NCBI RefSeq assembly: GCF_964030745.1
Contig: NZ_OZ034918.1
Location: forward strand, 540,001 to 572,000
DNA from: Candidatus Saccharimonadota bacterium
GTDB lineage: Bacteria; Bacteroidota; Bacteroidia; Cytophagales; Amoebophilaceae
DNA: 32,000 bases
Reading direction: 5' to 3'
A program made the translations under genes and the position numbers. The stretch's first letter is position 1. Each line of letters opens with the position of its first letter. Under the pieces are notes generated by a model. It was not told the origin of the DNA, ran no database searches, and saw only the letters and a program-made list of their open reading frames with translations. This document shows, one piece after another, positions 7,821-7,962 of this stretch.

Positions 7821-7962
7821 AGACCTTCTGCAAAACCTATTTCTAATGGCAATTTTGGTGTCGAAGCTTGTCTATGCTCCTCAAATACATCTAGTATGCT
7901 GCGGTGCTCGACTGCGCTTCTCCTAAAAATTGCTCATCATAAATAGCTTTTGCAGAAGGTCT
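7821..7962 (+). mobile_element. Palindromic element PE (MITE-like), intact copy
   Basis: 142 bp. The 22-bp terminal inverted repeats are AGACCTTCTGCAAAACCTATTT and AAATAGCTTTTGCAGAAGGTCT. The interior is largely self-complementary. Direct ATG/ATG flanks lie at 7818..7820 and 7963..7965. Confidence 0.85.

Follow-up and report, generated by a model that had tools for sequence, protein, structure and literature searches.

What are the short palindromic repeats that crowd this locus, and how did they come to be there? The original prediction, made on the whole 32,000-nt stretch of DNA analysed here (the window), described them as a dense family of MITE-like elements with 22-bp terminal inverted repeats and 3-bp target-site duplications, inserted one at a time by a transposase that the window itself does not encode. 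Our analysis leads to an answer of the same kind with a family name attached: the repeats are very likely a non-autonomous palindromic MITE of the RPE1 family in Cardinium, mobilised in trans by a transposase encoded elsewhere. The transposase step of this reading is one that we infer from the duplications alone.

The window carries cell-division and housekeeping genes of Bacteroidota type (ftsI, an FtsL_2-type ftsL, recG, murB, leuS, pheS, ruvC and gyrB/parE) as well as a gene for an ankyrin-repeat protein, and the nearest homologues of its FtsI are all from Cardinium. NCBI lists a 62-aa hypothetical protein (P0121) under the Cardinium endosymbiont of Philonthus spinipes, and its sequence agrees at 100% identity with the translation of window positions 13875-14060, a stretch made up of part of one repeat copy and its upstream flank. 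The host of the element is a Cardinium (Bacteroidota, Amoebophilaceae), very probably the symbiont of the rove beetle Philonthus spinipes; a 2025 review of Cardinium counts icPhiSpin1 as one of seven closed genomes of the genus.

Results

All five of the intact 142-143-bp copies that had been predicted were found at their predicted positions, both by a scan with the 22-nt terminal pattern and by a profile search. At three or fewer mismatches the terminal pattern matched the window ten times, and these matches are the two ends of each of the five elements (0.00 expected from 100 shuffles), while an nhmmer profile built from the five full copies recovered all five at E values of 1e-46 to 1e-51. 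The same profile also found the two genic copies of the prediction, both diverged, at 1327..1470 and 3243..3386, so that the five full intergenic copies and these two make seven in the 32-kb window.

The copy at 7821..7962 (plus strand, 142 bp) is a full member of the abundant Cardinium subfamily, with ends that are perfect over 15 nt; it sits in a non-coding stretch 5' of recG and is flanked by the triplet ATG at 7818-7820 and again at 7963-7965. The 143-bp copy at 8294..8436 (plus strand) is flanked by ATT and retains a strong hairpin (z -7.9); a probably spurious 89-aa ORF (8225-8494) overlaps it. A full 142-bp copy at 11365..11506 (plus strand), flanked by ATA, lies in the interval from which the ankyrin-repeat gene (10145-11125, minus strand) and an ORF at 11702-12610 (plus strand) are read in opposite directions. 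The full 142-bp copy at 13938..14079 (plus strand), flanked by ATT, begins 13 nt past the murB stop codon, and it is this copy that, together with its upstream flank, has been publicly annotated as P0121. The last full copy, 142 bp at 18417..18558, is on the minus strand, lies between divergent genes 47 nt 5' of the leuS start, and is flanked by TTT in element orientation (AAA on the plus strand). Several annotated "hypothetical proteins" are in fact translated copies of the element.

The terminal sequence that the prediction ascribed to every copy is shared by four of them, whose inverted repeats of about 22 nt contain zero or one mismatch. It is not shared by the copy at 8294..8436, the most diverged of the intergenic copies (91% identity to the consensus), which departs from it at three positions per end, although these changes compensate one another (on the left TC has become CT, on the right GA has become AG). 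Homology among the copies stops sharply at the inverted repeats and the flanks are unrelated, which bears out the prediction that the copies are independent insertions and not pieces of one longer duplicated region. The 142-bp consensus is interrupted by stop codons in each of its six frames.

The predicted 3-bp target-site duplications are perfect in all five window copies. Identical 3-mers 142 nt apart occur at a fraction of 0.0199 of window positions, and against this background five perfect duplications out of five have a probability of 3e-9. We then have a second genome in which to see the same signal, the Cardinium of Dermatophagoides farinae (cDfar; CP101107, VMBH01), where 42 kb hold eight full copies and additional fragments, the full copies being flanked by TTT/TTT, AAA/AAA, ACT/AAT, AAT/AAT, CTT/CTT, AGT/AGT, CGT/CGT and AAT/AAT. 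Over the sampled loci of the two Cardinium genomes, all but one of the 13 full intergenic copies thus have a perfect 3-bp duplication (P ~5e-20), the excess of matching flanks that the prediction had anticipated. The fourth base beyond the duplication does not match. The reconstructed targets are 68% A+T, with variable triplets and a weak consensus of A-T-T followed by G-T.

Empty sites in relatives, by which independent insertion had been proposed to be recognisable, were found at three places. At the ftsL/ftsI junction the window carries a clean 147-nt insertion, made up of the 144-nt element and its 3-bp duplication, relative to cDfar and to L094, the closest relative, both of which are empty there; the insert within FtsI occurs in two of 17 aligned homologues (the window and L094); and the site 3' of murB is empty in the related lineage L102 and holds a copy 13-15 nt past the stop codon in both the window and cDfar. 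The two murB-site copies are opposite in orientation and carry perfect duplications that differ (AAT vs TTT), and therefore represent independent insertions. The simplest reading is that two separate insertions took place at nearly one spot, which would then be a preferred target. For the intergenic copies in general, we rejected orthology between the two genomes, since, with respect to murB and recG, the copies point in opposite directions in the two genomes and their duplications differ. We found no insertion polymorphism between two cDfar assemblies, which carry identical copies at the two loci compared. One cDfar copy cuts into the apparent start of a resolvase gene.

In the roughly 80 kb sampled from the two genomes there is about one copy per 5 kb, and the very high genomic load that had been predicted is plausible. 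Three other Cardinium lineages yielded no copy: L102 (22 kb, syntenic), C. hertigii L103 (13.8 kb) and the distant L106 (13.6 kb). At one copy per 5 kb, absence by chance has a probability of about 0.01 to 0.07 per lineage; the three absences are thus unlikely to be accidents of sampling, and the family is therefore patchy within Cardinium. Copies from each genome share diagnostic bases and indels that are specific to that genome, and amplification would therefore have continued after the Cardinium lineages split. Wider nucleotide searches returned no further element: a genome collection that did not include the source genome gave 92 single hits to an internal 17-mer against about 70 estimated by chance, none of them with the element; an exact-pattern scan with the 21-nt end gave three chance matches in JGI metagenomes and zero in IMG/VR; and among PLSDB plasmids the whole element (blastn) and the RPE1 peptide (tblastn) had no match, the end alone matching at chance level only.

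The long imperfect hairpin of the prediction is real by folding. It runs from end to end of the element, with a DNA minimum free energy of -31.1 kcal/mol (z -8.2); as RNA, one strand gives -54.5 kcal/mol (z -7.9) and the other -64.2 kcal/mol (z -10.5). Across 16 copies, compensatory changes occur at 12 of 50 hairpin pairs, a number that none of 500 shuffles reached (3.1 +/- 1.4). Of the hairpin cells, 88% are paired, compared with at most 47% when partners are slid by one to three columns; as the hairpin was predicted from one of these 16 copies, this comparison of percentages is biased in its favour. The fold is gone from the old ftsI copies (z -1.3 in the window, -0.2 in L094) and persists in the ftsL copy (z -5.2). 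Since the old genic copies lack it, we ascribe the hairpin to the active element and not to the host site; it is tied to the mobile lineage and decays after a copy is stranded.

A fold preserved in this way raises the alternative that the copies are now mainly structural or regulatory hairpins selected by the host, serving as transcript ends, 5'-UTR structures or RNase targets. The family consensus of the window and that of cDfar are 93.7% identical, whereas four-fold degenerate sites of recG, ftsI and the gene for an M32 peptidase are only 61.7% identical between the two (n = 595); the compensatory changes preserve the fold, individual copies lie just 3' of murB and just 5' of leuS, and such roles are known for other bacterial MITEs (review, PMC10969869). 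The conservation is explained equally well, however, by constraint on an active master copy or by horizontal transfer; in the first case the entire element would be under constraint in the active lineage, in the second it would have passed from one Cardinium strain to another. Positions differ between genomes, the murB and recG copies are opposite in orientation, and it is the long-resident ftsI copies that have lost the fold. The element also contains no terminator-like site and no excess of sigma-70-like promoter sites; the exact Bacteroidetes -7 box is absent, its near-matches TAGCTTTT and TAGGTTTT pointing outward at each end; and the element belongs to no Rfam family, matching only plant microRNA hairpins far below threshold. 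We therefore regard a mainly host-selected role as improbable, even if it is the strongest of the competing explanations.

The family to which the mobile element belongs became apparent from its translation. NCBIfam model TIGR01045, "palindromic element RPE1 domain", has a curated cut-off of 30 bits, and the ftsL copy, conceptually translated, reaches 61 bits (E 7.6e-17, profile positions 5-45 of 48), while the abundant Cardinium consensus scores 27.1 bits (E 2.9e-6), below the cut-off; both translations were joined over one frameshift or stop at the element centre. The insert within FtsI likewise falls below the cut-off (19 bits, E 0.001), whereas P0247 (34 bits) and P0263 (32.7 bits), both encoded by the source genome, and P0250 of cDfar (35.3 bits) exceed it, and two Cardinium proteins have already been named "palindromic element RPE1 domain-containing protein" by the NCBI pipeline.

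Peptide searches carried this connection to other symbionts. When the 47-residue FtsI insert was compared by phmmer with 1.84 billion representative proteins, 19 hits were obtained at E <=0.001. Three of these (P0249, P0256 and P0259) are unrelated repeat proteins, and the other 16 carry the element peptide. Eleven are short ORFs, nine from the two Cardinium genomes, one from the Wolbachia of Pentalonia and one of unknown source; there is also a 494-aa ENA protein in which a glycosyltransferase is fused to NusB via a copy, as well as a 145-aa JGI protein. In Wolbachia, colinear in-frame inserts occur in AddB of wCfeT, in an ankyrin protein of wCori and in a RuvX. The long hits with the element peptide all match TIGR01045, and the translated Cardinium consensus is colinear with the Wolbachia inserts over 47-48 residues, which is the whole element, at about 60% identity. 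A peptide search with the opposite strand gave two short ORFs only. Judged from these comparisons of translated sequence, the repeats are members of the RPE1 palindromic-element family, linked to it at the level of the peptide model, and the window would hold two RPE1 subfamilies, the abundant Cardinium type and a single Rickettsia-like copy at ftsL. The RPE1 family is consequently wider than its original "Rickettsia-specific" definition and includes elements of Cardinium and Wolbachia.

Two of the copies lie within genes for cell division. The first, an old 144-bp copy at 1327..1470 (plus strand, nhmmer E 5e-34), is inside ftsI (994..3222, minus strand), which encodes a penicillin-binding transpeptidase of 742 aa and reads the copy in frame on the strand of the RPE1 peptide. 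The result is a net insert of 47 aa (residues 587-633, codons 1324-1464) in the linker that joins the transpeptidase domain (259-569) to the PASTA domain (693-735), and the triplets that flank the copy still agree at two of three positions. The orthologous FtsI of L094 has an insert of 43 residues that is likewise open. Synonymous sites have reached saturation between the two strains (four-fold sites are 56% identical), and between the two proteins the insert is 53% identical and the remainder 84%; we therefore take the insert to be an old one that is tolerated under weak constraint. The intergenic consensus is not open in the ftsI frame, in which a TAG interrupts it and its centre is a base shorter (CTAG, compared with CCCAAG in the ftsI copy). 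An AlphaFold model of FtsI built from 17 sequences has a mean pLDDT of 48.7, too poor to judge the insert as a surface loop, and the neighbour-joining tree of FtsI is star-like, such that it does not separate vertical descent followed by loss from horizontal movement among Cardinium.

The second genic copy, 144 bp at 3243..3386 (minus strand, nhmmer E 1e-14), belongs to the Rickettsia-like RPE1 subfamily and forms the 3' end of ftsL (3260..3724, minus strand). It entered the gene after codon 113 and displaced the native last nine codons, so that this FtsL_2-family protein, 154 aa long where relatives have 117-128 aa, ends in a C-terminal tail of 41 element-encoded residues and terminates at the element's own stop codon. 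The insertion also leaves ftsL and ftsI 37 nt apart, whereas the genes overlap in relatives. The copy is 75% identical to the window consensus, and none of the five relatives examined has it; its insertion postdates the split from L094. A search for further copies of the ftsL type in the Cardinium DNA examined found none. One Logan contig ends within the ftsL copy.

The prediction that the window encodes no transposase, and that the elements are accordingly non-autonomous, agrees with what we find: no transposase domain was detected in the window ORFs scanned, and the consensus has no coding capacity. A transposase ORF bounded by the shared ends, which had been put forward as the object to look for, did not come to light in about 170 kb of Cardinium DNA, in PLSDB, in JGI metagenomes or in IMG/VR, and no longer or autonomous element with the same ends occurs in those 170 kb. 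Genes of the DUF1703 type (AAA-ATPase_like plus PDDEXK_9) repeatedly adjoin copies and were considered as mobilisers, but their distances from the copies vary and the region upstream of these genes has no homology to the element; we rejected them in this role and take the two to be neighbours in tolerant DNA.

Insertion sequences abound in Cardinium genomes, and one of them has given rise to a published MITE in one strain (PMC9769881); the repeats might be a MITE confined to Cardinium that descends from such a resident sequence, either ISCca3-like or of the IS982-derived MITECca01 type, with the likeness to the RPE1 peptide being coincidental. We examined ISCca3 (IS5 family) as the parent and rejected it as a demonstrated one, retaining it as a lead. 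The motifs AGACC and TGCAA are common to its ends and those of the element, but the overall similarity is weak (GAGACCGTTGCAATAG vs AGACCTTCTGCAAAA in the element) and the two differ at the very tip; among three Cardinium loci with ISCca3, the flanks show no 3-bp duplication, the one informative copy being flanked by ATTTT, which is readable as TTT if the ends shift by one base. MITECca01, for its part, is about 240 bp long and has been reported from the Oedothorax strain only. Coincidence would moreover have to account for the score of the ftsL copy on the RPE1 model, for the several Cardinium peptides above its cut-off and for the colinear Wolbachia inserts, and we consider such an origin quite unlikely, more so than a host-selected hairpin.

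A REP- or BIME-like repeat spread by a REP-associated tyrosine transposase, or a residue of segmental duplications, would suit a palindromic and mostly intergenic element, and the shorter RPE-4 and RPE-6 of Rickettsia have been grouped with CGTC-tagged REPs (PMC3733652), but REPs are palindromes of 20-40 bp that bear a GTAG or CGTC tag and lack a target duplication, compared here with 142 bp, 22-bp inverted ends and duplications in 12 of 13 copies, the window has no Y1 transposase gene, and the unrelated flanks up to the ends exclude segmental duplication, making this the least credible of the explanations that we weighed. The predicted choice of a transposase-mediated MITE over a REP-like repeat is thus upheld by the duplications, the sharp borders and the empty sites.

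Discussion

We propose that the repeats of the window spread as a transposase-dependent element of the RPE1 family. A transposase from elsewhere would bind the inverted ends, the target would be cut with a 3-nt stagger and joined to the element, and repair of the gaps would yield the 3-bp duplication. Insertions fall mostly into intergenic DNA, at an A+T-rich and variable target, and genic copies appear to persist only where the reading frame tolerates the insertion.

The palindromic element RPE-1 of Rickettsia was reportedly described by Ogata et al. in 2000 and 2002. RPEs are a textbook case of selfish DNA inside protein-coding genes, and the Rickettsia copies have been described as old and decaying; to our knowledge, no insertion mechanism or duplication has been established for RPE-1 since 2000. 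The Cardinium element resembles RPE-1 in its length (~145 bp in Rickettsia), in being wholly palindromic and multi-copy in an obligate intracellular symbiont of arthropods, and in occurring both between genes and in frame within essential genes without destroying them. It differs in that its host is a member of the Bacteroidota, whereas Rickettsia is alphaproteobacterial; in that the abundant Cardinium subfamily is diverged (27 bits) and is interrupted on the RPE1 strand by a stop or frameshift at its centre; and in that the Cardinium copies include many young ones whose ends are intact and whose 3-bp duplications are perfect. RPEs have been stated to occur in Rickettsia and Wolbachia, and the RPE1 inserts of Wolbachia (wCfeT AddB, the wCori ankyrin protein, RuvX and the Wolbachia of Pentalonia), compared here from proteins alone, are alike in their peptide. 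A family common to Rickettsia, Wolbachia and Cardinium would imply exchange between unrelated intracellular symbionts of arthropods.

Two other groups of bacterial MITEs invite comparison. Correia elements (NEMIS) of Neisseria are also orphan MITEs, of about 100-155 bp, with long inverted ends, a hairpin over their whole length, many copies near genes and no known transposase. They duplicate TA, in contrast to the variable 3-bp duplication found here, and have no sequence similarity to the Cardinium element. Their inversion in place has been reported (PMC10969869), which recalls the opposite orientations at the Cardinium murB site. Within Cardinium itself, MITECca01, together with MITECca02, is the only MITE to have been published; it comes from the symbiont of Oedothorax gibbosus, is about 240 bp long, derives from ISCca4 (IS982 family) and shares its ends (Halter et al., 2022; PMC9769881), and it is the most abundant mobile element of that genome and is reported to be absent from other Cardinium strains (PMC9769881). 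Like the repeats studied here, MITECca01 is a non-autonomous and mostly intergenic MITE; it is set apart from our 142-bp element by its length and by having an identified parent. Neither the cDfar genome papers nor the 2025 Cardinium review mentions the element, and we found no description of it in full-text literature on Cardinium together with MITEs, palindromic elements or RPE, or on wCfeT together with palindromic elements. It is apparently an undescribed branch of RPE1 in another bacterial phylum, and not a new kind of element.

A more far-reaching proposal follows, which we put forward tentatively and regard as slightly more apt to fail than to hold: that the Cardinium copies are the first young, undecayed members of RPE1 to be seen, that RPE1 would then be an ordinary transposase-driven MITE passed among Rickettsia and Wolbachia (Alphaproteobacteria) and Cardinium (Bacteroidota), and that the ftsL copy is a recent second arrival. 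The ftsL copy is given this role because it is missing from relatives and is closest to the profile based on Rickettsia sequences.

The intact ends and 3-bp duplications of the Cardinium copies point to a staggered-cut transposase for the RPE1 family and indicate concretely what to look for, an ORF for that enzyme enclosed by AGACCTTCTGCAAAA...TTTTGCAGAAGGTCT. For those who work with Cardinium genomes, copies of the element are a likely cause of assembly breaks and of spurious short ORFs. In the symbiont itself, two essential division genes, ftsI and ftsL, have been remodelled by the element, and a small non-coding element may be added to the DNA that Rickettsia, Wolbachia and Cardinium share across phyla within arthropod cells.

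Element copies in or next to other reading frames

Copies of the RPE1-family element also lie within or are joined to other open reading frames. At 10001-10229 of L100, a locus of CP101107 from the Cardinium of Dermatophagoides farinae (cDfar), a resolvase-like ORF keeps its initial 31 codons and is then followed by an element copy; the fusion is annotated as a hypothetical protein of 70 aa (P0122). At 3111-3250 of the same locus, a degenerate copy seems to be read through as approximately residues 102-135 of a 559-aa hypothetical protein; in the other assembly of cDfar, this ORF is broken at the degenerate copy. 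A 494-aa predicted protein from a 4.8-kb ENA contig (P0244) carries the N-terminal part of an ArnT/PMT_2-type glycosyltransferase and NusB in one frame, joined via a Cardinium-type RPE1 copy that scores 36 bits on TIGR01045 (the NCBIfam RPE1 domain model), and represents either a genuine fusion or an open copy that bridges two genes.

Gene starts and assembly breaks around the copies

Counted from its first ATG, the recG ORF of the window (5354-7630, minus strand) encodes 758 aa, compared with 695 aa in Cardinium relatives. The real start probably lies near 7441, and the non-coding stretch that holds the copies at 7821 and 8294 would therefore be longer than the ORF table indicates. A 15-kb contig from the window's own strain (L093; Logan SRR15069915) begins within the copy at the 3' end of ftsL, 81 nt before ftsI, which suggests that element repeats break short-read assemblies of Cardinium.

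Other repeats and a lipoprotein-like gene trio

The window also holds a second palindromic repeat family, unrelated to the RPE1-family element, with 194-bp cores at 13565-13758 and 29903-30096 (both plus strand) and a further member at 8681-8872 (minus strand). This repeat has 24-nt inverted ends, GCCCCGCGTCTCCTTCGATAAAAA ... TTTTTATCGAAGGAGATAAGGGGC, and folds into a single long hairpin (DNA MFE -58 kcal/mol, z -9.6); it matched no Rfam family, and none was found in the other Cardinium loci compared. Two of its sites share a larger block (13461-13867 and 29799-30204). Shorter duplications include a stretch of approximately 120 nt (24137-24257 and 24827-24944, 84% identity), one upstream of each of the adjacent ORFs 24266-24676 and 24944-25441; a 97-nt stretch present twice, 5.9 kb apart (25670-25766 and 31592-31690, 87% identity); and a tandem repeat of two 39-nt units (25342-25419, 97% identity).

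Three neighboring minus-strand ORFs (9093-9527, 9592-9954 and 10145-11125) have a common lipoprotein-like N-terminus, M..K..QYRS.LF.GLL.LNTLSSC, and diverge beyond it, the third carrying ankyrin repeats. The three appear to form a small protein family that is secreted or effector-like.

DUF1703-type genes beside the copies

In all cases seen, DUF1703-type genes (AAA-ATPase_like, PF09820, plus PDDEXK_9) or their remnants adjoin element copies; these genes and remnants lie at 7754-9610 of L100, at 1124-2947 and 9474-9611 of the comparison locus L095, and at 12820-12978 (plus strand) of the window. What the window retains is an N-terminal piece of 52 aa (38 bits), at a position syntenic with an intact DUF1703-type gene of cDfar. 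Since the spacing between gene and copy varies among cases and no common sequence was found upstream of the DUF1703-type genes compared, a shared location in tolerant DNA seems likelier than a functional link.
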